Source: an uncultured Pseudomonadota bacterium
GTDB taxonomy: Bacteria; Myxococcota_A; Polyangia; Fen-1088
Direction: 5' to 3'
Assembly (NCBI GenBank): GCA_963847705.1
Contig: CAWKBC010000029.1
Span: forward strand, 97,278-161,277
DNA length: 64,000 bases
Part shown: piece by piece, positions 5,875 to 58,050 of the stretch
How positions within the stretch are numbered: the first letter of the stretch is position 1
Layout of the letters: each line of letters opens with the position of its first letter
Translations under genes and position numbers: made by a program
Notes under the pieces: generated by a model
Told to the model about the DNA's origin: nothing
The model's input: the letters and a program-made list of their open reading frames with translations, nothing else
Database searches by the model: none

Positions 5875-5891
5875 GTTGCCCGACGGCTTCG

Positions 5892-6116: not shown

Positions 6117-6178
6117 TCTGATGTCCTCCGGGACCGCGTACGTTTCTGGCGTGAAGCTGCCCGCGCCAGCACAGGGTG

Positions 6179-7796: not shown

Positions 7797-7854
7797 GCGC
7801 GGTTGCGGCGACGGTCGTCGGCCGGCCGGCGAAACCCGTCGGCGCGGGCGACGT

Positions 7855-29026: not shown

Positions 29027-29108
29027 CAGGAGTGCCCGGGCCTCCCTCCTCAGCGTCAAGAGCGGAATGATTGCAAGTTACTGACGTTGGCGTCATTATT
29101 TTACAGTC

Positions 29109-29867: not shown

Positions 29868-30473
29868 GCGCCCTCGACCTCACGCTCTTGCTGAAGGACT
29901 TCCCCTCTCCGGTGGTGACGACCTCCGAGGTCGCCGTCCTCATGCGAGGACGAGTCGACTCAGCGAACAAGATGCTCGGCAGGCTGGCGACCAAAGGCGT
30001 CGTCAAGCCGCTCGCCAGGGGCTTGTGGGCCCTCGGCCGGGACCTCGATCCGAAGGTTCTGTCGCGCTACCTGGCCGCGCCCTCCCCCAGCTACCTCTCT
30101 CTCCTGTCGGCGCTGAGGTTTCACGGGATGATCTCCGCAGATCCCGCGCTCGACGTACGTGGTGACGCTCGGCAGGCCCCAGGAGGTCGAGACGTCGTTG
30201 GGCGACTTCTCCCTCCACACCGTGGCGCCCGAGGTCTTCGGAGGATTCGTGGCGACCCCCGAAGGTGCGCTCATCGCCTCGCCGGAGAAGGCCCTCTTCG
30301 ACGTCTTCTACCTGTCCGGGACGAGGCCGCGCACCTTCTCGTCGCTGCCCGAGGTCGAGCTGCCCGACGACTTCGACTTCGGGAAGGTGAGGAGCTGGAC
30401 GCGCAAGGTGCCGTCCAAGCGCCTCCAGACGATCGTGGAGCGCAGGACGTCAGAGCTAGAAGCGGCCCAATGA
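29864..30473 (+). pseudogene. AbiEi-family antitoxin/transcriptional regulator with a 1-nt frame break
   Basis: The ATG overlaps the toxin stop (ATGA). MSALDLTLLLKDF...TTSEVAVLM...ARGLWAL...PSYLSLLSALRFHGMI runs to about 30133. It then continues in the +1 frame as PQIPRSTYVVTLGRPQEVETSLGDFSLHTV... (ORF 30159..30473). Confidence 0.6.
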
Positions 30474-30665
30474 CTCACGTGAGCGGCTTGCTCGGCTGTG
30501 GACATCCGATCTTACTTGCCGCGCGAGGCGGCGTCGGCGGAGCCGAGCTCGATGTCGCGTTGCCGTTGGCAGCACGGGAAAGGGCAACGATACAGGGTCC
30601 GCCGTAGATTGACCGCGCACATCCAAGATCCAGGTTTCTCCGGGTGTGACGGAGGGAGTACAGAG

Positions 30666-31922
30666 ATGACCGGACGGGGGATGGCTGGAGCGGTGGTCGG
30701 TCTTCTTTTATCAGCCCCGGCCTGCGGCGGGCGCAACGAGGCAGCGCCGGCCGGCCACGATGCGGGAGCGGTCGCGACTGGCGGTGAAACCGGGGCCGGT
30801 CCTGTCGCGGGCGGGCAGGCACCGGCGGTCGACGGCGGCGTTGCTGCCAGCTCCACCCCGCCAATGAGCCCGCCGGCGCGCACCTGTCCGGCAGCGCTGC
30901 CACCCGGCGCGACTTGGACCGATGTTCCGCCGCCTGCGGGCCTCCCCAGCGGATTCTTTGCGACGGATGCTTGGTCAGCCGGCCCCGACGACCTCTTCTT
31001 CGTCGGCGCGGATCCCGCGGACGCCATCGGCGATCCGTCGGCGGTTCGTCGCGTCCTCCACTGGTCGGGCGGGTGCTGGACGATCGAGCTCGCCGTCACG
31101 GGCAGTCTCGACGCACCGGCACAGATCTCGGGCACCTCGCCCAACGATGTCTGGATCACCACCGGCGACGCCATCTATCACCGCGATTCCACCGGTTGGT
31201 CGCCCGCCGCGCAACTGAACGCGGCGCTGGCCCCCGCGCCCGGCAACCTGCTGATTCTCGAAGACGTCCAGGCGCGCACGCCCGACGACGTCTGGTTCAC
31301 GACCTCGGGGATGATCGTGCACTTCTTGAATGGCCAGGTGACCACGACCGAGATCCCGGCGCCGCCGCCGGCCGACCCCTCCGTCCCCCCCATCGCGTTC
31401 GCGTACAGCGCCATCTCCATCCTCGACGCGAACGACGTGTGGATCGGCGGGTCCGCCGAGCAGAACGCCAACACGATGCCACCGGCTTTTCTCTTTCACT
31501 TCGACGGTCAGACCTGGACCGTTCACGGGCCAGTCGGTCCAATCACCGTGAACGTGCTCTGGCCGGCCGGTTCGCCCGACGCGTTGTGGGTCGCGGTTCC
31601 AGCGGCCTCGAGCCAGCTGTTTCCGATTGTCGCGTTCGCCAACGACACGGTCACGCAGACGACCATCGCGAACTGGGAGGCGGGCGCCGACCTCATTTCG
31701 CTCTGGGGCCGCGCGCCGAACGACATCTGGGCGGCCGGAAAGGACATCGCGCACTTCGACGGCACCAGCTGGTCGCAGGTCGCCGACGCGCCCGCCTCGG
31801 TGCGCGACAACACCGACGCGACGGTCTTCGACAACGCGGTGGTCGTGGGCGACGCCACCACCACCTGGTTGACCAACGCGGGTCCGGTCTTTGTCCGCAA
31901 GGCGGCGAGCGCGAGTCCGTGA
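30666..31922 (+). CDS. lipoprotein with repeated xxDVW...G.W motifs (propeller-like), unknown function
   Basis: ATG 30666: MTGRGMAGAVVGLLLSAPAC lipobox. Repeats PNDVWITTGDAIYHRDSTGWS, PDDVWFTTSGMIVHFLNGQ, ANDVWIGG...FHFDGQTWT, PNDIWAAGKDIAHFDGTSWS. Confidence 0.55.
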   Translation: MTGRGMAGAVVGLLLSAPACGGRNEAAPAGHDAGAVATGGETGAGPVAGGQAPAVDGGVAASSTPPMSPPARTCPAALPPGATWTDVPPPAGLPSGFFATDAWSAGPDDLFFVGADPADAIGDPSAVRRVLHWSGGCWTIELAVTGSLDAPAQISGTSPNDVWITTGDAIYHRDSTGWSPAAQLNAALAPAPGNLLILEDVQARTPDDVWFTTSGMIVHFLNGQVTTTEIPAPPPADPSVPPIAFAYSAISILDANDVWIGGSAEQNANTMPPAFLFHFDGQTWTVHGPVGPITVNVLWPAGSPDALWVAVPAASSQLFPIVAFANDTVTQTTIANWEAGADLISLWGRAPNDIWAAGKDIAHFDGTSWSQVADAPASVRDNTDATVFDNAVVVGDATTTWLTNAGPVFVRKAASASP

Positions 31923-33369: not shown

Positions 33370-33780
33370 TCACGCGAACGGGTCGACGATCTCGATGCCT
33401 TCGATTCGCTGCCCCGCCTGCAGCTCCTCGGTGATCAGACGATCGCAGCCGGCACGGCGGGCGGCATGGACGATGAGCGCGTCCCAGAAGCTGAGACTGT
33501 AGAGCCGATGCAGCTTGATGCTTTCGATGATGTGGTCGGCGTCGACTGTGACGGCGACGAGCACGGAGAGAACCTCGACCTTCTTCTGGGCCGCCTCGGC
33601 CGCCACGGAGAGCTTCCGCGTGACAACTGCGAAATACTCCTGCAGCACCTGCGTCGAGATCACCGCATCCCCGTTCGCCAGCGCGCCGATGAGCAGCGCC
33701 TGCGCCTTCGCTCGCTTCGCTCCGGCGTCGGCATCGTCCGCGTAGACGAGGATGTTCGTGTCCAGAAAGGCGCGGGCCAT
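33370..33780 (-). CDS. vapC: PIN-domain toxin VapC
   Basis: MARAFLDTNILVYADDAD..., with acidic residues at the expected positions (D7, E48, D100 region). 136 aa. Confidence 0.8.
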   Translation of the reverse strand: MARAFLDTNILVYADDADAGAKRAKAQALLIGALANGDAVISTQVLQEYFAVVTRKLSVAAEAAQKKVEVLSVLVAVTVDADHIIESIKLHRLYSLSFWDALIVHAARRAGCDRLITEELQAGQRIEGIEIVDPFA

Positions 33781-34022
33781 CAGGACCGCCGGGGATCGTA
33801 GGCGTCCGATCGACGGATTCGCTTGCCCCCCGAGCGACCGGCCGATTGGGCCCAGAGTTTTCGGAGCTCGTCCGCGAGCGCTTCACCCGTCCGGCGTCCG
33901 GCGACCAGCTCGAGCTGTCGGCGGACGAGCTCGTTGAGCGTCGTCCCCTGGCGCTGCGCAATTTCGCGCACGCGAGCGACCAGGTCGTCGGAGAGAGCGA
34001 TCGTCACGTTCATCGTGTACAC
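33780..34022 (-). CDS. vapB: VapB-type antitoxin (RHH-like)
   Basis: MNVTIALSDDLVARVREIAQRQGTTLNELVRRQL. Its stop overlaps the vapC ATG by 1 nt (TGATG). Start is 34022 or 34013. Confidence 0.6.
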   Translation of the reverse strand: MYTMNVTIALSDDLVARVREIAQRQGTTLNELVRRQLELVAGRRTGEALADELRKLWAQSAGRSGGKRIRRSDAYDPRRS

Positions 34023-36809: not shown

Positions 36810-36988
36810 GGCGCTGTTCACGTACGACTGCGACCGCGACAGCCCCGGCGTCGTGATTCCCCGTCCAGAGCTCCAGCTGGTCGTTCGCTTCGGCCCGTCC
36901 TCGCGAAACGGTCTCGACGTCCACGCCTTCGGCGCCCGCCAGAGGGTGCACCGAAAGCTCATCCGCCGCGGCCAGCGGAGCGCCCTAC
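36810..36988 (+). pseudogene. remnant: 5' end of an AraC-family gene paralogous to 27352..28074
   Basis: Encodes SALFTYDCDRDSPGVVIPRPELQLVVRFGPSSRNGLDVHAFGARQRVHRKLIRRGQR, matching 27355-27532. Similarity stops abruptly at about 36988. Confidence 0.75.
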
Positions 36989-38010
36989 GGTCTTGGGGCT
37001 CCCCTGCGGCGACTGATCCGTGGCTTGGCTGGGTCGCCGGATTCGTGCGCGTGCCAGACGCGCTTGGCGTCCTTTTCCGCCTCTGCAAGCACGCGCTTCT
37101 CAGCAATCAGGTAGTTGCCCGCTTTCACGCCGCCGTTTGAAGACCAGCCGAGCCACTTCCCAAGTAGGTACTGGGGCCGATGTCGCAACTGGAACTGGGC
37201 AAGCCCTTCATAGCCGACTTGCGCCGGATCCCACCAGTGCCCCGTTACCAAGCGCCCGCCTTGGAGACGGGCGCACACCTCGTAGTGGCGGTTATCCTCT
37301 TTCCATTTGTAACGACCACGCAGCCGGTCGCCGAACACGGCGATTTTGACGGGCTGCTCGTGCCGAACCGAACCCTCGATCCACACGCAACGCATCTCCC
37401 CATCCCCACCTCCGATTGTCCTGCCCCACCGCCTGCGGAGCTTCCCTTCGGCACGTTGCATATGCCTCTGCAACCCACGGACGCCGTCTGCAGTCAGGTG
37501 GAACGCCCGACGGCTGCCGACTATCGTCATCTCCGCATCCAAGCCGACCCACGTAATACCTTCGAGATCGCTGATCGGCGCACCGCTCGACCGCATCTTC
37601 CAAGGCTCTCTGGGTGGTGAGATCGAATAAGGCTTCGGCACCGCGATACTCGCACCCATCGCGGGATCCCACCCAGCCGACCCCGCCTTCAGGACGAGCT
37701 GGAGGCAGTTGGCCATGCCCAGGGCCCCGCCGAACATACCCAGTTCGTACAGTACGTTGCCGCGGGGAAAATGACCCACTTCGTCTCTCGAGAACAAGAG
37801 ATCATCCGGAGAGAGCAAGAAAAGCCCGCCATCATAGCGCCGCAGCCCGCGCTCGATGGTCTCGACTGTCATATTTCCGGGTACGAAGAATCCATCGGTC
37901 CATATCTCGCAGTCCGCCCACTCACGGATCGCCCCCTTTACCTGCTCGGCAGCCTTCTTTGCTTCAATTGAACTAGCGACGAATACTCTCGGTTTCATGA
38001 GTGCCGTCAC
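36985..38010 (-). CDS. TIR-like (bacterial nucleotide-binding TIR-like fold) domain protein with an unknown C-terminal domain
   Basis: 341 aa. N-terminal KPRVFVASSIEAKKAAEQV...LFLLSPDDLLFSRDEV...RGNVLYELGMFGGALG matches the remembered signature of PF10137-type TIR-like domains (hydrophobic strand, SPDD, NVxxExGxFxGxLG). The C-terminal ~220 aa are unrecognised. Confidence 0.55.
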   Translation of the reverse strand: MTALMKPRVFVASSIEAKKAAEQVKGAIREWADCEIWTDGFFVPGNMTVETIERGLRRYDGGLFLLSPDDLLFSRDEVGHFPRGNVLYELGMFGGALGMANCLQLVLKAGSAGWDPAMGASIAVPKPYSISPPREPWKMRSSGAPISDLEGITWVGLDAEMTIVGSRRAFHLTADGVRGLQRHMQRAEGKLRRRWGRTIGGGDGEMRCVWIEGSVRHEQPVKIAVFGDRLRGRYKWKEDNRHYEVCARLQGGRLVTGHWWDPAQVGYEGLAQFQLRHRPQYLLGKWLGWSSNGGVKAGNYLIAEKRVLAEAEKDAKRVWHAHESGDPAKPRISRRRGAPRP

Positions 38011-38111
38011 ATTAGAACATCGAGCGCGCCGGCCGGGCTCTGTCTTTCGACAGCCTCTGACACTGTCGGCACACTATGGCTAGTACACGAGATCCCAAGT
38101 TCCTATCCAGG

Positions 38112-38426
38112 CTAAGGGGTTGATGCGAGAAGCCAGGTGAAGTCCTGGTGGAGCCAGGCGACCATGTTGCCGCGTGGACCGACGAAGGGGATGGGCTCCC
38201 AGCGGTTGGAGTGGGTGCGTACGTCGACACGCCAGTTGTCGCGTTCCAGAAGGCGGAAGCGGAGCCGGACCTCGGGGTCTGTGGTCGGGCCGGACTCTAC
38301 GAAGACGGCGTTTCGCACGACGCGCGCGCGAAGGTGCTTGTAGCCCAGGATATGCAGCAGCCGCTCGATTCCGGCGGCATCGTCGGCAAGGGTGGCGGGG
38401 GGCTTCTTACTCGTGGCTTTGGGCAT
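38112..38426 (-). CDS. small hypothetical protein
   Basis: ATG 38426: MPKATSKKPPATLADDAAGIERLLHILGYKHLRARVVRNAVFVESG...RWEPIPFVG...; 104 aa. The start lies 20 nt from the IS630 transposase stop. Confidence 0.4.
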   Translation of the reverse strand: MPKATSKKPPATLADDAAGIERLLHILGYKHLRARVVRNAVFVESGPTTDPEVRLRFRLLERDNWRVDVRTHSNRWEPIPFVGPRGNMVAWLHQDFTWLLASTP

Positions 38427-38429
38427 CAG

Positions 38430-39600
38430 GGCCGGCCGAGCCACATCAGGCGGCGAGGCGCGGACGTTGATGCTGATCGAACCGGCCCCGGAAAGTCCAG
38501 CGGAACGGATGGGCTTCCTGGCGGTTCCAATGTTCGATGAACGACAGGAGGCGCTTTTCCAGTTCACCAGGCGTCCGGAAGTCTCCGAAGCGAATCACGC
38601 GGCGCTGAAGAATCCCGAACCAGATTTCGATCTGGTTCACCCACGATGCGTGGATGGGTGTGTACACAAAATGAAAGCGATTCCCGTGGCGGCGGTTGAA
38701 ACGGGCCCACTCTGCGCCGCAGTGAATGTTGAGGTTGTCCCAGACGATATACACGTCGCCGGTCGGGTAGCGACGGGCAAGATCCTCCATGAAGGCCAAG
38801 AGGTCCGCTGCAGTTCGACGTGCGCGAACATGCGCGAAGACCTCGCCGGTGCGGATGTCGAACGCCCCGATCAGCGTCCGGGTGCCGCGCCGTACGTACT
38901 CACATTCGAATCGATTGGGTTGGCCTGGCCGCCCGGGACGCATCGGAAACCGGCGGCCCAGCGCCTGAATGCAGGTCTTCTCGTCGACGCACAGGACCGT
39001 CGCCCCTTTTGGGGGTCGAAGTGTACAGGCGGCAGATTCGGCGCACCTTCGGGCGGAACTTTGGGTCTGGGCTGTGTAGCCACAAGCTGACCCGATGCGG
39101 TCGCATTCCCTCGGTTCGAAGAATCCTGCCAATCTCGCTTACGCTGAGCGTGTGCCCGGTTTCGCGCCGGAGGGCCTCTCGGAGCGTTTTGTAAGTCCAC
39201 GTATCCCGAAACCGCATGCGCTTCTCGTCCGGCCGAATGCAAGCCAGCTTCACGAGTTCGAGGCGCACCTCCATCGGCACCCTCGACGGGCGCCCGCTAC
39301 GAGGCATGTCGCACAGATCATCGAGGTCCCCGCTCCCCATGAACCGATCCCGCCACTGGCGAACCGTCACCCGCGTCGTGGAGAGCCGCCGAGCCACTTC
39401 CGCCACCGAAATCCCCGACGCCAGCATCAGGATGATCCGCGCCCGTAGGCCAGTCCGATACTCCACCCGCTGGCCGCGCACCAACGCCATCAGCGCCTTT
39501 CGCTGCTGTCGCGTCACCTTCAGCCGACCTTGCTGCGGTCTTGCCATACCGCAGCGATCGATCTCGCCTCGATTCTATTCCCGACGGTCAGGAACTTTCG
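38430..39600 (-). mobile_element. IS630-family insertion sequence (ends not resolved)
   Basis: Contains the transposase frames below. Terminal inverted repeats could not be identified by eye, so the boundaries are approximate. Confidence 0.55.
38446..39547 (-). CDS. IS630-family DDE transposase, in two frames joined at an A4 tract
   Basis: The N-terminal HTH part (ORF 38900..39547: ...SGISVAEVARRLSTTRVTVRQW...RICRLYTSTPK) continues in the +1 frame (ORF 38446..39132: GATVLCVDEKTCIQALGR...VWDNLNIHCG...YTPIHASWVNQIEIWF). The junction is at CCCCCAAAAGGGG (39004-39016, minus strand). Confidence 0.75.
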
Positions 39601-39610
39601 GTCTCACGAA

Positions 39611-42600
39611 CTAGTTACTCGTAAGCAGGCGGCGCACGTCTGGAACCTGGAGCGCTTTATACTCAACGCCAAGAAGAGTGCACATTCGCTGTTTGAGCGC
39701 CCTGTCTCCTCCAAACAGGTAAAAGTGTTCGACTACAATTCGCCCGACAGCGTCACGCGCAAGAGCGTTGTCCTTGAGATCCCGAGCAAGCTCCTTAACC
39801 AGACCTTCGGGGAATGTCCCATTATTCTCCAGCGCGATCGCCACGTCGATAAGCCTCACTGCCACCGTCGGCGAATCAGACAGAAGACGTTCGTAAGTTG
39901 TAGTCAGCGCCGGCGATCCCACCGACGATGCAACTCTTTTGACCAGGCCGAATGTCACCATCCTCGCGAGCATTACCAGCGTGGCCTGCGCCCGCTCTCT
40001 TACCTCATCATCTTTGAACGTTGGAAATCGTTCACGTACCATTGCGATAACGTCCGCGACTATCTCCTCTTCATTGTTTTTAAGCAGACGAAACACCATC
40101 CCCAGCGCCCGAAGCCCGATGCCATAACATTCCTTGGCGATTTCGAATTTCGTATCCGCCTCGAGCGATCCAGGAAAGTTCTTGAGGCTCTGCCCGAGGA
40201 CCTGGAGAGTCTTCAGCGCTCCGTTCATCCGCATTATCGGGTCGACAGCCGCGCGCGCCGGATCGATTGCATCTCCGTCGCGGTCGTCCTCCGCCTCCGT
40301 CCCTTGCACATGCTCGTCTCTCGCAAGCGCAAGTTCGCGCCTCGCGTCCGACACCGCCTTCTCTTCATAGACCAAGTCACCAACGAGTGCCTCGAGGTCA
40401 TTTATGAACCCAACGTCGTCCGCCAAGCGAGCCGAATCAATGTCGCTAAATGAGTCACGTGCCGCGTTCAACATTTCCCGAACGATAGACGGGTCTTTCG
40501 ACAGATGGGCCAAAAACAACATGATATTCGCATAGCGCGTCCGATAGAGCGCACGTGCCATCGTCTTTATTTCGACCTGGATATCCGATCGCGATATGTG
40601 GTCGCGCATATAGTTGGCGGTGAAATAGTAAAGGAGATAGCGATGCTTAAACTGATATCTCTCACCCGACTTGCTTATCACTCTTTGATCCATCAGTTCA
40701 TCACGAACCCGCTCGAACGGACGCTCAATTTCATACCGTTCGACATACTCCGCATTGATTCGACGCCACTCGTCTTCAGCTAACTCGGTCACTCCCATGC
40801 CATGCAGACGATGCGCGAAAAACGACAAATACCCGACTGCGATATCGTAGTCGCCCTTCGACCTGTTCTTCGACAGCGCCAGCCGAACGAACAGCTCGAA
40901 GAAATAGCCGTGGGTACTAGCATTTGTATCAATTGGCGTGGCCGCCTCCGCGCCTTGCAAGATCGCCAATATGTAGATCGGGAATGGCGGAACAAAGTTC
41001 TTGCCCAGGATGACATCTAGCTGCCGATCGATTTCAACGAGACGTCGAGCAACTTCAGGACCGTCAGCATCGTAGTTATCTGACAGCGAGAACCACTTCT
41101 CGATCATCTCATTTCTTTGAACGCGCCCGAACGGCTGAATGTGATAGTGAGAAAACGTCGCGTCGCCGGACGGGCGCATGACGTCGGTTAGATTCTGGGC
41201 GACGTCATCGGCCAGCAAAACGACGGTGTCGGCCAGCATTGCCAAATTCGACACAAAAGCGTGTCGCGCCTTTCCGTTGAGCGGGATCTTATGGAAATCG
41301 TCCACGATGATGGCCTTTTTTCGCCGATCGTGCTGCGAATATCGATCCAGGGATCCCGGTTCGTACTGTTCCGAAAACTCTCCTTCGACGTAGCGCGAAA
41401 GCCCGTCGCTCTGTGGCGGGCGGCGCTGGCCTCGTAGCCATACGGGCACGATTCCTTGGTCGAGAAGCCTCGAGAAGAGCATTTTCCCCAACGAGGTGCG
41501 TCCCGACTGACTTTCACCGGAGAGGAGCAATTTTGGTTTTTGCTTTAGCAAACCAATAATCCCGTCTGCCTTTACTAACTCGCCTTGCTGTTGAGTCAGC
41601 AGTCGAATCTCACGAACGTCCGGAAACACAAACACATCTGAGAGTTTCAGCACACCCCGGTCGCGATGAGTGAGGTCCACCCCCGGGGATTCGATGAACT
41701 CTATCGTCTTCGGCTTGAGCTGAAACTCGCTTCCCTTTCGGTGCCGTGTTCGAAAGCCTTCCCAGTCCTTGGCGGAAGCCGCGAGGTACCGCTCGCCGTT
41801 CCACTTGACGCTGAGGACCTTCTGCTTTTGGGCTGTGGTGTCTACGAGGATGAGGTTAAAGGCGCTTCGTGTTGGATCGTCGCGATCCTGCAGCACGTGG
41901 CCCTCGACGTAGGAGACGTCCCCCGAAACTGTCTCGACCTTCCGATGCGAGTGCTCGTGTTCGTGCCCGGTCAAAATCACGTCGGAGATACGCTCCAATT
42001 GCGAACGAACGACGCGGGCATTCGACGGTTCGAGCCAGTTCATCGGATGGTGGAGTAGCGTTACGACGACATCTTCCCCTGCCTTTTCGGCGACAGCGTG
42101 AGGAGGGAAAAACAGAGAGCCGGGTCGTTCCTGGCGCCGGGACAGCGAGGCCGTATTGCAGCACAGAAAGCGCACCGATTCCCCACCGGCCTCAACGGCA
42201 ATCTCGTATGCGATACGTGGATCAAGGGGCCCGCTCGGCCGCCTTGCGGGCGACTGAACTGAATCGAGAAACTCAAAGAAATTGTCCTGGGCTTTCAGAA
42301 GGACCTGCCACATCGACGGATCATTTATGCTAGACGACTCCCGCAACATTGCGTCAGCGACATAGCCACGAGCTCCATCAACTTCTGGGAGTACACAGTC
42401 GTGATTGCCGGGCACCACAATCACCGACACAGGGACCGACGTCCCTGTACCCGGCTTCGCACTCAATGTTGAGGCTAGTTCCTTGGACAGCCAATCGACA
42501 AGCTCCTCGGCGACGGTAAACTCCTCGTCTCGGCCAGCCTGTACGACGTCGCCTGTAATCGCCAGGACAGCCGCATCCAGACCATATTCGGTGTTTTGAA

Positions 42601-42691
42601 TTGCTTGAACGATTGCTTTGCGACGCGAGAGGACGGGATCCGTCTCTGTCGCGAGATGAATGTCGCTAAGGTGAACTATTACAAGTTTCAA
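39611..42691 (-). CDS. metallophosphoesterase / P-loop NTPase / helical-repeat (STAND-like) multidomain protein
   Basis: TTG 42691 preceded by GGGAGG. Metallophosphoesterase motifs HLSDIHL, ITGDVV, VPGNHD, LLHHP, LTGHEHEH. Walker A GESQSGRTS (41492-41518). Walker B KKAIIVDDF. About 550 aa of C-terminal alpha-helical region. GC is roughly 52-55% in hand-counted lines. Confidence 0.7.
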   Translation of the reverse strand: MKLVIVHLSDIHLATETDPVLSRRKAIVQAIQNTEYGLDAAVLAITGDVVQAGRDEEFTVAEELVDWLSKELASTLSAKPGTGTSVPVSVIVVPGNHDCVLPEVDGARGYVADAMLRESSSINDPSMWQVLLKAQDNFFEFLDSVQSPARRPSGPLDPRIAYEIAVEAGGESVRFLCCNTASLSRRQERPGSLFFPPHAVAEKAGEDVVVTLLHHPMNWLEPSNARVVRSQLERISDVILTGHEHEHSHRKVETVSGDVSYVEGHVLQDRDDPTRSAFNLILVDTTAQKQKVLSVKWNGERYLAASAKDWEGFRTRHRKGSEFQLKPKTIEFIESPGVDLTHRDRGVLKLSDVFVFPDVREIRLLTQQQGELVKADGIIGLLKQKPKLLLSGESQSGRTSLGKMLFSRLLDQGIVPVWLRGQRRPPQSDGLSRYVEGEFSEQYEPGSLDRYSQHDRRKKAIIVDDFHKIPLNGKARHAFVSNLAMLADTVVLLADDVAQNLTDVMRPSGDATFSHYHIQPFGRVQRNEMIEKWFSLSDNYDADGPEVARRLVEIDRQLDVILGKNFVPPFPIYILAILQGAEAATPIDTNASTHGYFFELFVRLALSKNRSKGDYDIAVGYLSFFAHRLHGMGVTELAEDEWRRINAEYVERYEIERPFERVRDELMDQRVISKSGERYQFKHRYLLYYFTANYMRDHISRSDIQVEIKTMARALYRTRYANIMLFLAHLSKDPSIVREMLNAARDSFSDIDSARLADDVGFINDLEALVGDLVYEEKAVSDARRELALARDEHVQGTEAEDDRDGDAIDPARAAVDPIMRMNGALKTLQVLGQSLKNFPGSLEADTKFEIAKECYGIGLRALGMVFRLLKNNEEEIVADVIAMVRERFPTFKDDEVRERAQATLVMLARMVTFGLVKRVASSVGSPALTTTYERLLSDSPTVAVRLIDVAIALENNGTFPEGLVKELARDLKDNALARDAVGRIVVEHFYLFGGDRALKQRMCTLLGVEYKALQVPDVRRLLTSN

Positions 42692-43406
42692 CGTGACCTC
42701 CCAGGGGCTAGGGACGGAGGAGATGATTCCTAAGGTGGATAGACTCGTCCGAGCGCCGTTCAAATGGCGGGCTGAGCTGCGGGTCCCGCTACATTTCATC
42801 AATAGCTTGCTCGTTGGTCAAGAGATAGGCGGCGGTTTGCGCGTTTTCGGGCCCGCGCATTTCCTGCCTCTTGGCCAAGGGCCGGACACCTCCCAGACTC
42901 AATCCCCAGACGTGATACGATGCGCTTGGCTATCAGTTGCGGCTCGCAGCCAAAGGGGCGAGCTTGAAACGAATCATGATCTCGGGCGTGATGGCTCTCG
43001 CAGTTCGGGTCAGGGTAGGGACGTACTCAAAAGCCCTCGCCTCCTCCAGTCGAGCATCGGGGCTGCTGTTCACACCACGGCGGCGAGTGCGGGTGCGATA
43101 GCGGTCATGACAAGGGCTGCGACGGCACCGTTAGTCCTACCTGCGGCTGTGACTAATATAGGCGTCCCAAGCCTCGCTGAGGCTCGACGTGCTGGCCCGA
43201 TGGTGGCCCCCGTACTCGTTCGTAGCGGGCGTCGCTGCTGCGCGCGTGCCACTGAAGGTAGCGGCCTCAGATCGCGATCCTTACGGCCATTCGTTTACAG
43301 CCGCGTCGCGCCAAGACAGGCTGTGTTCGTCGAGCGGATCAGGCCGCCAGATCTCGGGACACCGAAGCAGGATCGCTGAAGAAGCGGGCGAGCCTAGCCC
43401 CGTCTC

Positions 43407-43428
43407 TGTGACCCCATCGGGAATTGAA
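43407..43428. repeat. attL: 22-bp direct repeat tgtgaccccatcgggaattgaa (copy of the tRNA-Glu 3' end)
   Basis: Identical to 57739..57760. The bases on both sides differ. Confidence 0.8.
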
Positions 43429-43791
43429 AGCACCCCAAGCGTCACGAAACGGAGCGAGGATCTGTCATCTCCGACGGAAAACCGAGGAACGAGGTCGTCG
43501 AAAAGGCGCCTCGTCGCGCTGAGCGGTAGCAAAGTAGCAAAAATCGCTGCAATTGCGCGAAATGCTGTAGAAAATTACGATCTGACTCGGGCAATCGAGG
43601 TACTAGAGGAGCTGCGGCGGCTCGGCGAAGGGCGATCGCGCTGAAGGCACTGAAGGCCGCGATCCGGTTGCTAGAATCCTTCAAGGACGCGCCGGAGAGC
43701 CCCCTCGGTGCCACGCGCAGGTGACGAAGAATCGGGACACGGCGCGCAATCTATAGCGCGAACCCCGGCTCTGCCAGCGCGGCCGTGCGAT

Positions 43792-44935: not shown

Positions 44936-45463
44936 TTACTTGCTGTAGATGCGTAACGGCGGTGCTGAGGCCTGCGAGACCTCGCGATAAGAACCCTTCA
45001 GACTGCTTTCTCCGAACCAAAACAGATACCAGATCGGGCCCTTGATTGTTGATCGGGTCTTATCGGCGGCGGTCCCGACCGCAACAATCCACCCCTGCCA
45101 TCGCAGCACAGAGTCGAGTAGTCCAACCCCGAGGCCGAGCTCGACGGGCTTGCCACGGTAAAAGAGGCGTCCGTCCCTTTCAACACGAACGTCGCTTCTC
45201 GCAGACTTTGCAGCATCGTTTTCTTTGATCATCTTCCAGAACTTCTGGTCGTCGAGGAACTCGACGCCATCGACGACTTCGACCGCGCGTTGCTCCTTTG
45301 CGTCCCATCGATGCCCGCAGCGCCGCAGCGCCGGCACACCGTCGATGAATTCGACCGAATGATTGCTCAGCATCAAAAACGCCCGGTTGGCTGCAACGCC
45401 CGCGTCGGCCGTCCCTGACATCATCACTGCCGCTCCGAGCAGAATAGCGACATGCAGTTCCAT
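44936..45463 (-). CDS. putative immunity protein for the upstream RHS toxin (secreted, unknown family)
   Basis: Starts 13 nt after the RHS stop. Signal MELHVAILLGAAVMMSGTADA. 175 aa. Lower GC, like the RHS tip. Confidence 0.45.
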   Translation of the reverse strand: MELHVAILLGAAVMMSGTADAGVAANRAFLMLSNHSVEFIDGVPALRRCGHRWDAKEQRAVEVVDGVEFLDDQKFWKMIKENDAAKSARSDVRVERDGRLFYRGKPVELGLGVGLLDSVLRWQGWIVAVGTAADKTRSTIKGPIWYLFWFGESSLKGSYREVSQASAPPLRIYSK

Positions 45464-45475
45464 TAGCCCTCCTCA

Positions 45476-47968
45476 TCACTTGGCTGGGTGGTAGTTCCAA
45501 CTGAACAGCAGGGGCCCAAACCCCCAATAAGACGCAGCCGGATCGTAGTTCATGGGAATCCCCGCCGCTGTAGCAAACCAGTGCGCGAAGTAGTTGCTGT
45601 TGGTTCCCGACCAATCGTACGTCAGCTTCTGGGCATTGAACGGATCGATAAGTGCTTGAAAATCCTGGAGCACAACGGGCGCGGATCCGTGAAAGAAGAC
45701 CGGTGTGCCTGGGGGGTTCTCGTTAACGAAATGTTTGGCCGCATCTCCCACTGTATCATACTTGTTGGCAGTAGCATAGAGAGTGCCCCCCTGCCCGTTC
45801 TTGTCGCACCCGGAGCATCCGGCCTCGATGAGAACGGCTGTGCCATCGTCCGTCTCAATTATCCAGCCGGCGTGTGATGCGTCGAAGAACGAGACGATGA
45901 GCTGCTTCCACCACACGAACGAGGACGAGTCGATCTGGCGCGACATCAAGAGCGCAGTGCCGGTCCTCGGGATAAGGCCGTTGCAAGCTGGGTCACCGGT
46001 CTTACAAGCTATGAACGTGCCGTCGTGCTTCTTCGCCGCGTCGGCCCCCTCGCCGTTGCCCTGCGACAGCTGAATCACCTTCTGTAGGCCCAGCGTTGCG
46101 GCCCCCTCCCCAGCGCTAAGGAGCGCGGCCCCCAGAAGATCGTAACCTGAGACGTCTCTTCCGGACAGCCCCTCGGACCAGGCGGTCACGTACGCGGCCG
46201 ACGCCGACCCGAAAATAAGGTTGGCCAGTGGGCTGCCGCCAGGCCCCCCGAACTCTACGCCGCCTACGAATCCCAGGCCGAGCCCGAGCGCAGTCGTAAA
46301 CAACGTTTGGGCAACTCCCGCCCCATCCGATATTGCGATAGCGGCATTGAGTGCCGCAAATTCCAGTCCAAGGGCCAAGCAGCCGACCTCGGTGGTTGCA
46401 CACGCCACTATGGACGCGGCTACCTCAATATCGGTGAGCGGATTGCCGAAGACAAACTCGAAGTAGTTGCCGAGCTTGCTCCAGAAGTAGCCCGTCGGGT
46501 CGTTGTACCGGAGGGGGTTATTCCCGACGTAACTGTAACGGTTGTAGTTCTGAAGGTCGTCTGTGAACTGGACATTCGGATCTGGTGAGAGAAAGCGAGC
46601 GAGCACGGGGTCATACACCCGCCCATTCATGTTCACGAGGCCGACGTCCGGGATCTGCTCTTGTCCCGTGAATTCGCGGTCTCCGGGCGGCAGGGGGAAC
46701 GACGCCGGATCCGCGAGCGTCCCGTCGGGATTCCGCCGGGCCCCCCATGCGTCATAGCTCAAGACGGTGGCGCTGGTTCCAGCGGACTGGACGCTGGCAA
46801 CCCGGCCATTGTCGTCGCTCATGGAGGACACGGAGCCGAGGTGATCGAAGCTGTAGTACTTGCTGTCGGTCGGCTGCCCGTTATCGTCCAGAACGCGGAG
46901 CGCGAAAGCATTGTCGTTGTGGAGGTTGCCCGCGTAGATGAAATGTACATTCTTGGGTGTGGCACCGGGAGTCGTCGTTCGCTCGTAGAGACTCTTTCCC
47001 GTGGCTCCCAGACCGACGTACACCGTCCGCGTCGTGACCCCTCCACTCGTCGCGGTCTGAAGGACGCGGTTCCCGTCGGCGCCGTACGCGAAACCGACGC
47101 TGGCGCCGCCGCTGCCGACGGTTTCGATGGTCGTCACCTTGTTCGACGGGTTGTAGCCCACCGAACGGCTCCCGTTCGAAGTCAGGTTGCCATTGTCGTC
47201 GTAGGCGTAGGCCGTGCCATTTCCCACGGTGCAGACGGCGTGTGGTCCGGCCGTGCGGCCTCCTGCCTGACAGCCCGAGCCGTAGGTGTAGTTGTTGTTG
47301 TCCTTCTGGGTTAGGTTGCCCACGTTGTCGTAGACATAGGATTTACTGACGGGCCCCGAAGACGTGAAGGTCACGGCGTTCGTGAGTCGGTTCGTGAGGT
47401 CGTAAGCGAAACTCTCTTGCGAGATGTTTCCGCTGGCGGCGTCGTTCCGGTTTCGATTCAACAGGTTGCCGATCTCGTCGTACCCGTACCCCTGACTCTG
47501 GATCACGTTGTCGTGGTCTGCGTGGGCCGTCCCTGTCGATGCCATCAGCCATCCGGTGATCGAGTTGCGCGTTGAAGCGATCTCGACGCCGTTCTTCATC
47601 TGCTCGTCGATGACCTGGCCGAGAACATTCTCGGCCTTCGCCTGCCACAGCACCGAATAGTCCGTCGACTCGTCGGTCAGGTACTGAAGGTAGCCCGAGC
47701 TCGTATAGTGATAGCCGACCGCAAGCTGGCTGGTGTTCACCACAGGGTAACGAATCAAGCTCTGCCGCCCCAAGCCGTCGTACTGGTAGGAGGTCGCGAA
47801 GGAGGTGCCGTCGGCGCACTCGTCAACCTCTTGCAAATCACCCAGCGGCGTATAGACGTATGACTTGACGGCTACCTGGCCGCCGTTACCCGGCGCGCCT
47901 TGGGAGAAAACAAAGACCCCGATTTTCGATGAAATCCTCGGCAGGCAAGACTCTCCTTCTTCGAGCAT
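45476..47968 (-). CDS. RHS repeat-associated core protein, N-terminally truncated, with a C-terminal polymorphic toxin domain
   Basis: YD/RHS repeats (YQYDGLGRQ, YGYDEIGNL, YAYDDNGNL, ...). Core-end motif RYSYVGNNPLRYNDPTGYF at about 46481-46540. About 335 aa of C-terminal tip follow. The ORF is only 830 aa, with no N-terminal secretion or PAAR-type region. Confidence 0.8.
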   Translation of the reverse strand: MLEEGESCLPRISSKIGVFVFSQGAPGNGGQVAVKSYVYTPLGDLQEVDECADGTSFATSYQYDGLGRQSLIRYPVVNTSQLAVGYHYTSSGYLQYLTDESTDYSVLWQAKAENVLGQVIDEQMKNGVEIASTRNSITGWLMASTGTAHADHDNVIQSQGYGYDEIGNLLNRNRNDAASGNISQESFAYDLTNRLTNAVTFTSSGPVSKSYVYDNVGNLTQKDNNNYTYGSGCQAGGRTAGPHAVCTVGNGTAYAYDDNGNLTSNGSRSVGYNPSNKVTTIETVGSGGASVGFAYGADGNRVLQTATSGGVTTRTVYVGLGATGKSLYERTTTPGATPKNVHFIYAGNLHNDNAFALRVLDDNGQPTDSKYYSFDHLGSVSSMSDDNGRVASVQSAGTSATVLSYDAWGARRNPDGTLADPASFPLPPGDREFTGQEQIPDVGLVNMNGRVYDPVLARFLSPDPNVQFTDDLQNYNRYSYVGNNPLRYNDPTGYFWSKLGNYFEFVFGNPLTDIEVAASIVACATTEVGCLALGLEFAALNAAIAISDGAGVAQTLFTTALGLGLGFVGGVEFGGPGGSPLANLIFGSASAAYVTAWSEGLSGRDVSGYDLLGAALLSAGEGAATLGLQKVIQLSQGNGEGADAAKKHDGTFIACKTGDPACNGLIPRTGTALLMSRQIDSSSFVWWKQLIVSFFDASHAGWIIETDDGTAVLIEAGCSGCDKNGQGGTLYATANKYDTVGDAAKHFVNENPPGTPVFFHGSAPVVLQDFQALIDPFNAQKLTYDWSGTNSNYFAHWFATAAGIPMNYDPAASYWGFGPLLFSWNYHPAK

Positions 47969-48240: not shown

Positions 48241-50250
48241 CTAGCGTCCGGGGCCAAACCGCGCGAGAGGGTCGCCAAGCGGTAGGCGTTCTGGCTCGTC
48301 GCGATGGCGCCCTTCGAGCCTGCGCAATCGGTCGTCCTGCCGTCTGAGGTGTTCAGCGAGGCGGTCTCCTGGCACACCAAACGCAACGGCCGCCGTCCGC
48401 TTCGCGTACGCATCCCAATCGCGCATCTCGTCTGGCCGAACAGCAGGCGCGGCCTCCTTGATCGCCCGCACGATCTCGCCCCGGTGGTGGCCAGTAAGGC
48501 GCATGCGGACAGCGATCTCGGCATCGACCCGCGACGGGTGGATGGGCTGACCTGGGTGCTCCCGGGTGACATCCGCGAGGTGACGCCGATAGACCGCCGC
48601 CGCCGTGCGAGTCTCCGCTATCCCGGCCGGTCGGCGATCGCGATCCGTCCGGTGCTCTCTTGCGGGTGTGCGAATCCGCTCCCGCTCCGCGGCAAGGGCA
48701 TGCTGGAGCTCCGGGTTCGCGATATTGAAGCCGTGCTCTGCAGCCAGTTCGACGCACATTCTCTGGAACAGCTCTTTTCCGCGGACGGTGAAGGCACCCC
48801 ACTTCTGGGCGCTCAGTTGAAGGGCGGCGAGGACGCTTTCCCTTCGGTTGCTGTCATAGATGTCGATCTTCTTACCCCTGTCCGTGAAGGCCGGGGAGGC
48901 GCGCTCGCCGACGCGATGATAGTGGACGTGCCAACCTTCAGCGAGCGCAGCGAACGCCCGGATGTCCTGGGGCGCCGGGCGCTCGAAGGTCAGCCCCTCT
49001 ATGCCGGCCGGCTGTCGTTCTCGATGTCGCCACTCCTGCGCGAGTTCGTGGTCCCTGTGACGCAGCCATTCCTCGTAGCTCGGGAACCGTCCCAGTTCCC
49101 TTTGCGGCTCGCCGCACTCCAGTTTTTGGCGATCACGCTGCTCCGCCCTTTCCTGCGCCTGACGGGCGGCGAGCATGCTCCGGGCCGCGTTGAGGAGCGC
49201 CCCACGACCTTTCCACGACCCGCGGAAGATCTCGGTCCGCTCCCGCCGATGCCGGGCGGCCATGCGTCTCCCGTCCTCCCGCTGCTGCTCCCGGTGAGCC
49301 CCACGCTCTCCGTAGTGACGGCCACGCGCCTCGATGTACTGCTTCCAGCCATAAGCGCTCGGTGTGATCGGCTCTGGAGTTCGGAGGGGTGTCATCACCC
49401 TGGCGGCATCCTTCGTCAGCTCGAACTCTCCGAGGCGCTTCTGCAGCGCCGACATCGAGCAGTCGCGGCCGGCGCTGCTGGCCTTCACCGGCTGATCGCC
49501 GACCCACAGAATCGCTCCCGAGCCCTTCCTCTCGAAGCGCATTCCCTTCTCGGCCAAGACCTCATGCATCTCCCTCCAGCTCCGAGCCGCGCGGATAGCG
49601 GGCGCTCCGTCCTCGATGGCCACCCGCTCGGCGCTCCGCGCGCCCACCCGCTCTTCGAAATTGCGGGCTCGGGCGGACGGTTTGCGTTCTTCCTCGCCGC
49701 GCGGTCGATCGCGCTCAACGCGCCCGTCCTCCTGCACCCGGAACAGACCGCGGTCCTCCCTCTGCCACCCCTGAGAGTTCTCGATGCGAGCGATCGCCCG
49801 GTGGGCGACCTCGTGGTCGAACCCGTTGTTCACGGTGGCTAGCTTCTCGGTCTCTGGGTGAACACGGTTGACGGCCATGTGGAGGTGCCAGTTCTCCGTG
49901 TCGCGGTGCAGCCCGTAGAGCGCCTGGTGCTCGGCCAAGCCCATCTCATCCAGGAACATCCTCGCCGCCTGATCAGCCTGGGCCGACGTCGGCTGCTCTC
50001 CCTCCTTCCAGCTCATGATCCAGTGCTGTACTGGCTGGGGGCTGCCCATGGCCAGGTCCGCCAAGTCGATCATCTCCTGCACCTGTTCCTCGTGATCGAG
50101 GTTCAGGAGGTTCAGGGAGCCCCGGTGCTCCACCTTCTCACCAGCGCCGCCGGCACCGGGGCCGGCGATGTAGTCGGCCAGGGCGCGCACGTGGGCAGCC
50201 TTGCTCTTGGGCGCCCCGACCTTCGATCGCGCGACCTTCTTGACGATCAG
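48241..50250 (-). CDS. traI: IncP TraI-type relaxase (MobP family)
   Basis: LIVKKVARSK...ALADYIAG (catalytic Tyr region), HWIMSW, HRDTENWHLHMAVNRVHP (HxH motif), colinear with RP4 TraI from memory. The longest canonical start (GTG 50190) would remove the conserved N-terminus, so the start is placed at CTG 50250 / ATC 50247. Confidence 0.75.
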   Translation of the reverse strand: MIVKKVARSKVGAPKSKAAHVRALADYIAGPGAGGAGEKVEHRGSLNLLNLDHEEQVQEMIDLADLAMGSPQPVQHWIMSWKEGEQPTSAQADQAARMFLDEMGLAEHQALYGLHRDTENWHLHMAVNRVHPETEKLATVNNGFDHEVAHRAIARIENSQGWQREDRGLFRVQEDGRVERDRPRGEEERKPSARARNFEERVGARSAERVAIEDGAPAIRAARSWREMHEVLAEKGMRFERKGSGAILWVGDQPVKASSAGRDCSMSALQKRLGEFELTKDAARVMTPLRTPEPITPSAYGWKQYIEARGRHYGERGAHREQQREDGRRMAARHRRERTEIFRGSWKGRGALLNAARSMLAARQAQERAEQRDRQKLECGEPQRELGRFPSYEEWLRHRDHELAQEWRHRERQPAGIEGLTFERPAPQDIRAFAALAEGWHVHYHRVGERASPAFTDRGKKIDIYDSNRRESVLAALQLSAQKWGAFTVRGKELFQRMCVELAAEHGFNIANPELQHALAAERERIRTPAREHRTDRDRRPAGIAETRTAAAVYRRHLADVTREHPGQPIHPSRVDAEIAVRMRLTGHHRGEIVRAIKEAAPAVRPDEMRDWDAYAKRTAAVAFGVPGDRLAEHLRRQDDRLRRLEGRHRDEPERLPLGDPLARFGPGR

Positions 50251-57778: not shown

Positions 57779-57812
57779 GAGGGCGACGTCCTAACCGCTA
57801 GACCATGGGGCC
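57741..57812 (-). tRNA. tRNA-Glu (anticodon CTC)
   Basis: Folded by hand: acceptor GGCCCCA/TGGGGTC, D stem GTCT/GGAC, anticodon stem TCGCC/GGCGA with loop CTCTCAC, T stem TCGGG/CCCGA with loop TTCAATT. 72 nt, no encoded CCA. Confidence 0.9.
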
Positions 57813-57830
57813 GCTATTCAGTTTTCAGAG

Positions 57831-57901
57831 TTCGGGGACAAGGATTCGAACCTTGATAGCCACATCCAGAGTGTGGCGTCCTGCCATTAGACGATCCCCG
57901 A
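57831..57901 (-). tRNA. tRNA-Gln (anticodon CTG)
   Basis: Folded by hand: acceptor TCGGGGA/TCCCCGA (U1-A72), D stem GTCT/GGAC, anticodon stem CCACA/TGTGG with loop CTCTGGA, T stem CAAGG/CCTTG with loop TTCGAAT. 71 nt. Confidence 0.9.
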
Positions 57902-58050
57902 TCACGTACCCCCGCCGCTCCGGAAGGCGGGACGCACATATCTAAAGAGGCGGGGCCCGCCTGTCAAGCCCGCGAAATCTGTCGGCGATTCGGGTTTGGT
58001 GGTTCCCCGGTTTCATGATAGCGATCGAAGGCTCGGGAGAGACCCGCCGC

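Follow-up and report, generated by a model that had tools for sequence, protein, structure and literature searches.

A full-length DS-8 ortholog and a TIR–β-barrel fusion gene lie side by side in a low-GC islet split by an IS630-family element

The analyzed window, a 64,000-nucleotide stretch of DNA with an overall GC content of 67%, contains three co-oriented open reading frames on the minus strand, at 39611..42691, 38112..38426 and 36985..38010. The coordinates agree with those of an earlier sequence-only reading, and the low GC content described there was confirmed by the composition analysis. In windows of 400 nt, the GC content was 49–60% across 39.4–43.0 kb and 58–65% across the 36985..38010 gene and an insertion sequence (IS), as compared to 69–73% in the immediate flanks (36.2–36.8 kb and 43.8–44.8 kb). 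The low-GC patch (about 49–65%) extends over 36900..43750 and encloses the two large genes, both of defense type, and the IS. The individual values are 55.2% for the 39611..42691 gene, 61.4% for the 36985..38010 gene and 63.4% for the IS. To the right of the locus lies a mobile element, as had been proposed, with a relaxase at 48241–50190 and an integrase at 56549–57778 beside tRNA-Glu and tRNA-Gln. Taken together, the data support a horizontally acquired low-GC patch adjoining a mobile element. Neither a cyclase nor a SIR2 or ThsA partner is present at the locus, in agreement with the earlier reading.

The largest gene (39611..42691, minus strand) encodes a protein of 1026 aa, which had been regarded as uncharacterized. 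This view was overturned by the profile searches. The protein scored 886.7 bits against the NCBIfam equivalog model NF053861 ("DS8_antiphage"; curated cut-off 790 bits), with a match spanning model positions 1–993 of 994, and 3.2e-100 against the PADLOC model PDC-S60. Judged by these matches, its motifs and its start site, the protein belongs to DS-8 (DefensePredictor system 8) over its whole length. Experiments in E. coli have validated DS-8 as an anti-phage system made of a single protein (DefensePredictor, Science 2026; PMC13092281). In E. coli, one gene was enough, residues of both the metallophosphatase (MPP) and the NTPase were needed, and a cyclic-nucleotide substrate was put forward by the authors (PMC13092281).

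The Pfam analysis identified a Metallophos domain at aa 4–246 (1.4e-12) and nSTAND_NTPase4, confirming the calcineurin-like phosphoesterase and the P-loop NTPase recognized earlier. The N-terminal metallophosphatase (aa ~1–290) is followed by a P-loop STAND NTPase, with the Walker A motif GESQSGRTS at aa 392–400 and the Walker B residues DD at aa 463–464, and by a C-terminal helical half of about 550 aa; the proposed effector–NTPase–repeat layout is supported. All five phosphoesterase motifs (D10/H12, G47-D48, G95-N96-H97-D98, H214-H215 and G242-H243-E244-H245) are present, and they are invariant in an alignment of 21 family members. In the Walker A motif, R398 replaces the lysine of GK[TS]; the GR[TS] form also occurs in 5 of the 21 intact relatives in the alignment. 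No frameshift or premature stop interrupts the reading frame, which is complete and keeps all catalytic residues. The start codon is the TTG at 42691, preceded at 5 nt by a Shine-Dalgarno sequence (GGGAGG), and the N-terminus fits the family consensus MKLxxVHLSD. The public gene call (P0008) covers only 810 aa, which looks like a start-site choice of the gene caller, since the TTG has a strong Shine-Dalgarno sequence and the longer N-terminus fits the consensus.

The architecture corresponds end to end to that of DS-8, with an SMPDL3A-like metallophosphatase at the N-terminus, then a NACHT/STAND P-loop and finally the helical C-terminal half in a protein of about 1000–1050 aa, the relatives of which are found as stand-alone genes. 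The copy differs in its host, a 67%-GC metagenome-assembled bacterium rather than E. coli, in the arginine of the Walker A motif and in the TIR gene that comes after it. The family is very rare (86 clusters), and identity to the nearest relative in the databases is only 42%. Avs and other STAND anti-phage NTPases are likewise composed of three parts, an effector, an NTPase and a repeat sensor. However, the effector of DS-8 is a metallophosphatase instead of a nuclease, a protease or a SIR2/TIR domain, its NTPase is of the nSTAND4 type, and the PADLOC Avs models did not match the copy.

The IS, a 1529-bp element of the IS630 family on the minus strand (38083..39611), is bounded by imperfect terminal inverted repeats at 38083–38104 and 39590–39611. 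The repeat has 18 matches in 24 positions and is the best pair between the two end regions, a value reached in 1.3% of 300 shuffles. The transposase is split over two frames, with an HTH part at 38900–39547 (Pfam HTH_32/HTH_23) and a DDE part at 38446–39132 (DDE_3), and blastn gave distant matches annotated as "IS630 family transposase". The repeat arms abut the TA target duplication (39612–39613 and 38081–38082), each copy of which lies within CTAG, showing that the element spans 38083..39611 and holds the 104-aa reading frame. It landed in the TAG stop codon of the DS-8 gene, and the stop was exactly regenerated. Thus, the IS630 of the sequence-only reading is real, but it does not simply lie between the large gene and the 104-aa reading frame. 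The latter (38112..38426, minus strand) is enclosed by the IS, lying after the transposase stop and before the right inverted repeat, and is therefore no part of the defense locus of which it had been considered a member. A GC3 of 0.81 would fit a coding sequence. No significant match was obtained in Pfam, PADLOC or NCBIfam, and tblastn detected no homolog next to the TIR–β-barrel gene in any of the TIR homolog loci. The reading frame is a passenger or cargo of the IS. With the IS removed, a spacer of 70–82 nt (37999..38082, minus strand) separates the two large genes. The spacer contains no convincing promoter-like or terminator-like site, and its predicted fold is no stabler than that of shuffles (z = −0.12).

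The gene at 36985..38010 (minus strand) encodes 341 aa if translation starts at the GTG at 38010 and 337 aa if it starts, as is more likely, at the ATG at 37998; the 337-aa product is identical to the public protein P0001. This frame, too, is complete: it contains neither frameshifts nor stops, and every catalytic residue is intact. Pfam PF10137 matched at aa 8–106 (1.9e-19), and PADLOC returned the CBASS "Effector TIR" (9e-24) and PycTIR (6e-15) models, both covering the TIR part only. Sequence matches in the PDB were to Cap12 (9LMQ and 7UN8). In the 341-aa numbering, a TIR domain of the Cap12/Pycsar type (aa ~5–160, with a disordered insert at 108–143) is followed by a helix (aa 174–198), an eight-stranded up-and-down β-barrel (aa ~206–305) and a C-terminal helix. 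The NAD-pocket residues F10, S14, W37, F41, R83, N85 and E89 correspond to F6, S10, W33, F37, R78, N80 and E84 of SfSTING, and the pocket and the catalytic Glu are invariant across the family. The TIR-like N-terminus noted earlier is a genuine Cap12/Pycsar-class TIR, predicted to be an NADase with an intact active site.

The C-terminal barrel was modeled by AF2 with a pLDDT of 88.4. Foldseek matches to avidin, lipocalin and designed β-barrels were weak (E-values 1e-4 to 1e-2) and indicate the fold class only. This class is that of small-molecule-binding barrels, suggesting that the domain may bind a ligand. No Pfam family and no PADLOC model covers the barrel, which is found fused to a TIR domain, an N-terminal transmembrane (TM) helix or an HTH domain. 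The confident model, the fold likeness and the varied fusions suggest that it acts as a modular sensor. The family, with about 8 long-form members (clusters), is an undescribed and very rare fusion of a TIR domain and a small β-barrel.

The protein resembles known effectors in part. It shares with Cap12/TIR-STING of CBASS (SfSTING; 7UN8, 9LMQ) an N-terminal PF10137-class TIR (24–33% identical across that region in the Foldseek alignments), all of the NAD-pocket residues and the catalytic Glu, and the order of effector before sensor. However, an eight-stranded β-barrel takes the place of STING at the C-terminus, no CD-NTase is adjacent, and the scores of the Cap12 NCBIfam models, 62.6 and 41.6 bits, fall far short of the cut-off of 450. 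The Pycsar effector PycTIR (8JSJ) has the same TIR class (PDB match 1.5e-3), but its cNMP-binding sensor is N-terminal and its TIR C-terminal, the reverse of the order found here, where the sensor has another fold and no Pycsar cyclase is present. The S-2TMβ effectors (Cap15 of CBASS, OptE of Panoptes) likewise combine a small soluble β-barrel sensor with a killing module, and relatives of the barrel carry N-terminal TM helices. These relatives have apparently one hydrophobic segment instead of two, and no synthase partner was seen. Cap15 was absent among the top 50 Foldseek matches of the barrel, and since the Pfam scans over the barrel were empty, they gave no sign of a relationship to the nucleotide-binding S-2TMβ barrels.

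The sequence-only reading had paired the two large proteins, and this was not supported by the genomic contexts of their relatives. DS-8 stands alone in its four closest relatives with usable context (L008, L010, L012 and L013), and a PF10137 TIR or barrel gene was found within 5–6 kb in none of 13 other DS-8/MPP loci, where positive controls worked. No metallophosphatase lies within 10 kb of the closest TIR–β-barrel homolog (L001; 62% identity), and L001, L029 and all of the short-form loci were without a match to the MPP HMM. Instead, the neighbors in these defense islands vary, with PD-T7-3 in L001 (3e-139), GmrSD/HEC-06 in L029 (1e-169) and FRG/PDC-S15 beside a short-form relative in L020. 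The sole exception is L003, an independent genome with a TIR protein of 41% identity, where a DS-8-type MPP with a P-loop (HMM 5e-25; PDC-S60 1e-27) adjoins the TIR–β-barrel gene. The architecture of that MPP protein is permuted, and about 950 nt separate its gene, which is divergently transcribed, from the TIR–β-barrel gene. A DS-8-type metallophosphatase with a P-loop is thus the immediate neighbor in 2 of the 4 informative contexts (the window and L003), which is more than expected for random defense-island neighbors, given the great rarity of the two families (86 and about 8 clusters). The two genes may therefore be functionally linked.

Such a link could mean that the two proteins work together, the phosphodiesterase responding to phage by making a nucleotide, or by depleting a standing inhibitory one as in Panoptes, and the barrel reading the change and turning on the TIR NADase. 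The short co-oriented spacing before the IS arrived, the common low-GC patch, the pair in L003, the cyclic-nucleotide substrate proposed for DS-8 (PMC13092281) and the precedent of OptE, a β-barrel nucleotide sensor acting via ligand loss, all agree with this scheme. We nevertheless consider it unlikely, as DS-8 alone suffices to protect E. coli (PMC13092281), the other DS-8/MPP loci lack a TIR or barrel gene, no MPP is near the TIR gene in L001 and L029, the one in L003 is permuted and divergent, with about 950 nt in between, the GC contents are unlike (55% and 61%), and the sample comprises four contexts only.

The adjacency to DS-8 would be irrelevant if the TIR–β-barrel protein served a CBASS-, Pycsar- or type III CRISPR-like signaling pathway as an orphan effector, with the cyclase elsewhere in the genome. 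The TIR class and an effector–barrel logic like that of Cap15 and OptE point in this direction. Effectors of CBASS and Pycsar are, however, almost always in an operon with their synthase, and no cyclase or CD-NTase adjoins family members in the window, L001, L003, L029, L020 or L021. With a barrel lacking Pfam matches and a Cap12 score far below the cut-off, this explanation is improbable. It is similarly doubtful that the locus is decaying and that one or both genes are non-functional. The IS sits directly between the genes and may have separated the TIR gene from its promoter, the remaining spacer has no promoter-like site, R398 makes the Walker A motif non-canonical, and the public DS-8 call is a fragment. 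Against this, both frames are complete with intact catalytic residues, the IS regenerated the DS-8 stop, GR[TS] occurs in intact relatives, and the 810-aa call appears to reflect the choice of start.

We favor, with a probability of about 60%, a small defense islet in which two self-sufficient single-gene immune systems stand side by side, and between which the IS630-family element inserted later. The proposal of a candidate defense system was right in that both large proteins are of defense type, but most likely they are two separate immune genes and not one new paired system. Given their co-orientation and the 70–82 nt between them before the insertion, the genes may have been co-transcribed, which for adjacent defense genes does not alone imply a single mechanism. 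Points counted against two separate systems are the MPP neighbor in 2 of 4 contexts, the shared low-GC patch and the co-oriented spacing, and further the GR[TS] Walker A motif and the weak Foldseek matches of the barrel.

As two separate systems, each protein would sense infection by itself. For DS-8, the role shown for the family in E. coli would extend to this copy, with the C-terminal helical half presumably sensing infection, the P-loop NTPase driving assembly and the SMPDL3A-like metallophosphatase providing the effector chemistry. In the TIR–β-barrel protein, the calycin-like barrel would be the sensor, most likely recognizing a small anionic molecule, for example a nucleotide; since no dedicated signal synthase is encoded nearby, this molecule would be a metabolite of the host or the phage. 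Upon infection, a change in barrel occupancy would allow the TIR domains to pack against each other, so that their active sites become complete in the manner of TIR-STING and TIR-SAVED, and the resulting destruction of NAD+ would abort the infection.

The GC content in 400-nt windows was 49–60% across the largest of the three minus-strand ORFs and 58–65% across the TIR gene and an insertion element, as compared to 69–73% in the immediate flanks, bearing out the GC trough described in the sequence-only reading. Per gene, the values were 55.2% for the large gene (39611..42691), 61.4% for the TIR gene (36985..38010) and 63.4% for the insertion element, with a mean of 67% for the window. All three ORFs, including one of 104 aa (38112..38426), are present as that reading described them. 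A search for direct and inverted repeats marking the ends of the island revealed nothing convincing.

The proximity to an integrated mobile element was also confirmed. To the right of the locus are an RHS-repeat protein fragment with a variable C-terminus (44936–47968, 830 aa, GC about 60%, RHS_repeat match), a MobA/VirD2 relaxase/primase with TraI-middle, LPD7 and RepB-primase domains (48241–50190), and a tyrosine integrase (56549–57778) that overlaps the end of a tRNA-Glu gene (57740–57812), which is adjacent to a tRNA-Gln gene (57830–57901). The segment 48241–57901 represents a mobilisable element integrated at a tRNA site. A fusion of a PP2C phosphatase and a cyclic-nucleotide-binding domain is located just outside the integrase/tRNA junction (58015–59346), and the RHS fragment is followed by a 175-aa ORF with no matches, which could be an immunity gene. 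At lower coordinates, an ORF at 29087–30607 contains an AbiEi-like domain (residues 268–350; PADLOC, 1.7e-8) and is followed by an overlapping 474-aa ORF with no matches (region 29087–31922); the two lie about 6 kb from the locus and may constitute an AbiE-type toxin-antitoxin or abortive-infection pair. A VapBC-like pair, consisting of an RHH antitoxin and a PIN toxin, is encoded at 33370–34022 (minus strand).

The large protein had been taken as uncharacterised, but profile matches identify it as a new member of DS-8, a known and validated system. The NCBIfam equivalog model NF053861 (DS8_antiphage) scored 886.7 bits, above its curated cut-off of 790, aligning residues 7–1008 to model positions 1–993/994, and the PADLOC candidate PDC-S60 matched at 3.2e-100. 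Pfam identified a Metallophos domain at residues 4–246 (1.4e-12) and an nSTAND_NTPase4 domain. DS-8 is among the systems validated in the DefensePredictor study (PMC13092281), according to which one protein combines an SMPDL3A-like metallophosphatase with a NACHT domain, protects as a single gene and requires both enzymatic domains; defence was abolished by mutating two metallophosphatase catalytic residues or an NTPase residue, and the authors leave the substrate open.

An alignment with 20 relatives (n = 21) showed that the metallophosphatase motifs DxH, GD, GNHD, HH and GHEH are invariant and present in the large protein, at D10/H12, G47-D48, G95-N96-H97-D98, H214-H215 and G242-H243-E244-H245, respectively. 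The Walker A residues G392 and G397 and the Walker B residue D464 are invariant in the family alignment and also present here. The Walker A motif (GESQSGRTS, residues 392–400, window 41494–41520) has Arg at the usual Lys position, where K, R, G or S is found across the family. Because 5 of the 21 sequences carry Arg and another 2 carry Gly or Ser, the Arg probably represents within-family variation and is no obvious sign of decay. The motif here is GxxxxGR[TS], as compared to GK[TS], and such variability of the Lys position is not usual among STAND NTPases, given that an NTPase residue of DS-8 is reported to be essential.

The DS-8 gene starts at TTG 42691, five bases downstream of a GGGAGG Shine-Dalgarno sequence, and the N-terminus MKLVIVHLSD fits the family consensus. 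The DNA at 39611–42691 is an uninterrupted ORF of 1026 aa, whereas the public gene call (P0008) covers only 810 aa and misses the whole metallophosphatase catalytic domain, which looks like a start-site error of the gene caller. Since the catalytic domain is absent from the public call, annotation-based defence finders would miss or mis-score this DS-8. A genome scan with the DS-8 protein as a single query identified at least one locus. Full-length relatives with 21–26% identity are found on IMG/VR contigs classed as viral (L030–L034), so DS-8 appears to travel also on phages or prophages.

The DS-8 and TIR genes are separated by an IS630-family element of 1529 bp (38083..39611) with terminal inverted repeats at 39590–39611 and 38083–38104. 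The repeats were identified by comparing the sequence ahead of the transposase start with that beyond its stop and taking the best pair; the match of 18/24 positions was reached by 1.3% of 300 shuffles. A TA inside CTAG precedes both arms, and CTAG is the classical target of IS630 elements. An end located just after the transposase stop was rejected, as no inverted-repeat match was found there with up to 6 mismatches allowed. The element encodes an IS630-type transposase in two overlapping frames, which contain HTH_32 and DDE_3 domains; it shows the features of the family, namely DDE_3 with an N-terminal HTH, terminal inverted repeats and a duplicated TA within CTAG, and its transposase needs a frameshift. 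The HTH frame (38900–39547) and the DDE frame (38446–39132) overlap by 233 nt, and the split is due either to programmed frameshifting or to a mutation that inactivates the transposase.

The insertion site lies within the TAG stop codon that ends the DS-8 gene. As the element begins with a G, this codon is restored and the protein is unchanged. The boundaries of the element define the exact sequence without the element, in which 70 nt separate the DS-8 stop from GTG 38010 and 82 nt separate it from ATG 37998. No terminator or promoter was recognisable in this original spacer, and its predicted fold was no better than those of shuffles. The 104-aa ORF, which the sequence-only reading had counted as a member of the locus, lies inside the boundaries of the element and is IS cargo outside the defence locus. 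It had no significant match in Pfam, PADLOC or NCBIfam, and was rejected as a conserved partner since tblastn found no counterpart beside the TIR homologues. Other copies of the element were sought to confirm the passenger ORF, and only short and distant transposase matches in plasmids were retrieved.

The TIR protein matched PF10137 (CAP12/Pycsar TIR) at residues 8–106 (1.9e-19). The PADLOC CBASS "Effector TIR" models and PycTIR matched the TIR part only, as did the NCBIfam Cap12 models NF050172 and NF050171 (62.6 and 41.6 bits, respectively, against a cut-off of 450). Sequence matches in PDB were to Cap12 (9LMQ, 7UN8) and PycTIR (8JSJ), and a Foldseek search with the full-length model again returned TIR-STING entries. 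The cryo-EM analysis of TIR-STING (PMC9402430) assigns F6, S10, W33, F37, R78 and N80 of SfSTING to the NAD pocket and identifies E84 as catalytic. In the HMMER alignment, their counterparts in the window protein are F10, S14, W37, F41, R83, N85 and E89. Because all seven are invariant across the TIR-barrel family, the TIR domain is predicted to be a competent NADase.

The C-terminal domain was poorly modelled from five sequences (pLDDT 66). When a profile of its alignment was searched exhaustively, 27 proteins were identified, and the model built from the 27-sequence alignment reached a pLDDT of 88.4. In the predicted fold, an eight-stranded up-and-down β-barrel is preceded by a β-hairpin and a long helix and followed by a C-terminal helix. 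In PDB, Foldseek matched the barrel to designed β-barrels, avidins, lipocalins/FABPs, nitrobindin and NHBA/TbpB barrels, with E-values of 1e-4 to 1e-2 and target-normalised TM-scores of 0.5–0.7. These matches establish a fold class, that of the calycin-like ligand-binding barrels, with no specific relative. No family in Pfam (E ≤ 0.1 for the window protein), PADLOC or NCBIfam covered the barrel, nor did any Pfam family at E ≤ 1 in relatives where it is fused to a transmembrane segment (P0097, P0100, P0104–P0106). A profile search against PDB sequences returned nothing (best E-value 0.25), and a viral structure library contained nothing below 1e-3. A STING, SAVED or cNMP sensor as the C-terminus was excluded by the Pfam and NCBIfam scans, the barrel model and Foldseek. 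The protein is an undescribed variant of the TIR effector theme noted in the sequence-only reading, and the C-terminal domain that this reading had left unrecognised is a new putative sensor domain.

The barrel occurs in four arrangements. In two of them it follows the same TIR domain, giving a long form (about 8 clusters: P0001–P0005, P0094–P0096) and a short form (about 265 aa); in the other two it follows either one N-terminal hydrophobic helix, in proteins 160–230 aa long, or an HTH, in actinobacterial proteins. Strand glycines and tryptophans, which are structural, are invariant in all forms. In the long form, five arginines on the barrel strands (R229, R231, R248, R276 and R278) are invariant as well, which may hint at an anionic ligand. 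The HTH fusions in P0121 (L015/L016, 6001–6939), L025, L026 and L028 are of the XRE type and encoded in housekeeping contexts, which implies that the barrel is not limited to killing modules. A metagenome scan with a three-sequence barrel alignment yielded 10 contigs, most of them short, a search of the 5.8-billion-protein set with alignment A3 gave few additions among the matches listed, and a scan of viral contigs for the TIR-barrel family found none.

The protein shares with Cap12 (TIR-STING) a PF10137-class TIR domain in which E89 corresponds to the catalytic E84 of SfSTING. In contrast, the C-terminal STING domain, a cyclic-dinucleotide receptor, is replaced by the modelled eight-stranded β-barrel, and the adjacent CD-NTase of CBASS Cap12 is found neither at the window locus nor at the homologue loci. 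Unlike PycTIR of Pycsar, which has an N-terminal cNMP-binding domain and an adjacent pyrimidine cyclase, the protein lacks PF00027, which is carried only by distant TIR-only relatives (P0006, P0007), and there is no cyclase nearby. No PADLOC match to ThsA or ThsB of Thoeris was obtained among the window proteins. These results agree with the earlier claim that the locus contains no partner from a named system. Regarding the nucleotide-binding S-2TMβ barrels (Cap15/OptE), no Pfam family covers the barrel and membership by sequence is thus not given. The domain is predicted to be a β-barrel (pLDDT 88) whose nearest PDB folds are ligand-binding, and Cap15 was outside the top 50 Foldseek matches.

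The sequence-only reading had paired the large protein with the TIR protein, an arrangement that is not conserved across the homologue loci. The four closest DS-8 relatives with usable contigs (37–41% identity) stand alone with no conserved neighbour, being surrounded by toxin-antitoxin pairs, transposases and housekeeping genes. TIR and barrel HMMs that recovered every positive control gave no match in 13–14 loci with DS-8 or related metallophosphatases, five of which are full-length copies from IMG/VR viral contigs. Conversely, the TIR homologue with 62% identity (L001) has PD-T7-3 as a neighbour (3.4e-139) and no metallophosphatase within 10 kb, and a GmrSD/HEC-06 gene (1e-169) adjoins the TIR-barrel gene at L029. 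A short-form relative at L020 starts 14 nt after an FRG/PDC-S15 gene. This same-strand arrangement (L019 78–1800, L020 133–1804; PDC-S15, 3e-46) is possibly a two-gene unit. The contexts of L005 and L006 were too short to inform. The TIR-barrel family is always found among defence genes, except for one short-form relative located among housekeeping genes (L021). Taken together, neither of the two genes requires the other, and what their contexts share is a location in defence islands.

We consider the TIR-barrel protein to be a putative one-gene abortive-infection NADase gated by its barrel. Ligand-driven filament formation completes the NADase site of TIR-STING (PMC9402430), and β-barrel sensors are described in the literature as acting via gain or loss of a nucleotide ligand. 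Alternatively, the barrel may read the chemistry of a neighbouring phosphodiesterase. At L003 (41% identity; GCA_035902635.1, JAMHOP010002573.1), the divergent upstream neighbour is a 1006-aa protein (6031–9051, minus strand) of permuted DS-8-like make-up, with a weak ThsB-like TIR match at residues 191–283, an nSTAND3/PDC-S59-like P-loop and a DS-8/PDC-S60-type C-terminal metallophosphatase; it adjoins a 1648-aa NACHT-HEAT protein (1072–6018, plus strand). A DS-8-type metallophosphatase is thus present in 2 of the 4 informative TIR-barrel contexts, which for two rare families exceeds our chance expectation, although four contexts are much too few for a firm conclusion. An occasional two-gene signalling module, in which a DS-8-type metallophosphatase/STAND protein makes a signal that the barrel reads and the TIR NADase fires upon, seems to us unlikely. 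In such a module, the signal would arise from a phosphodiesterase instead of a cyclase, through formation of a linear or cleaved nucleotide or through loss of a standing one.

The locus is real yet largely explained, and with its main gene already described it is no new system in the sense first proposed. The novelty lies in the TIR-β-barrel family, a one-gene candidate that by its sequence joins an intact Cap12-class NADase to a sensor outside all Pfam and PADLOC models, one that is reused with transmembrane and HTH partners. With about 8 long-form clusters in 5.8 billion proteins, the family is absent from catalogues because it is so rare. The main interest lies in this family and in the recurrence of metallophosphatase neighbours, the adjacency in 2 of 4 contexts being the sole genomic hint to the chemistry of DS-8; the two-gene module, if true, would also point to the DS-8 substrate.
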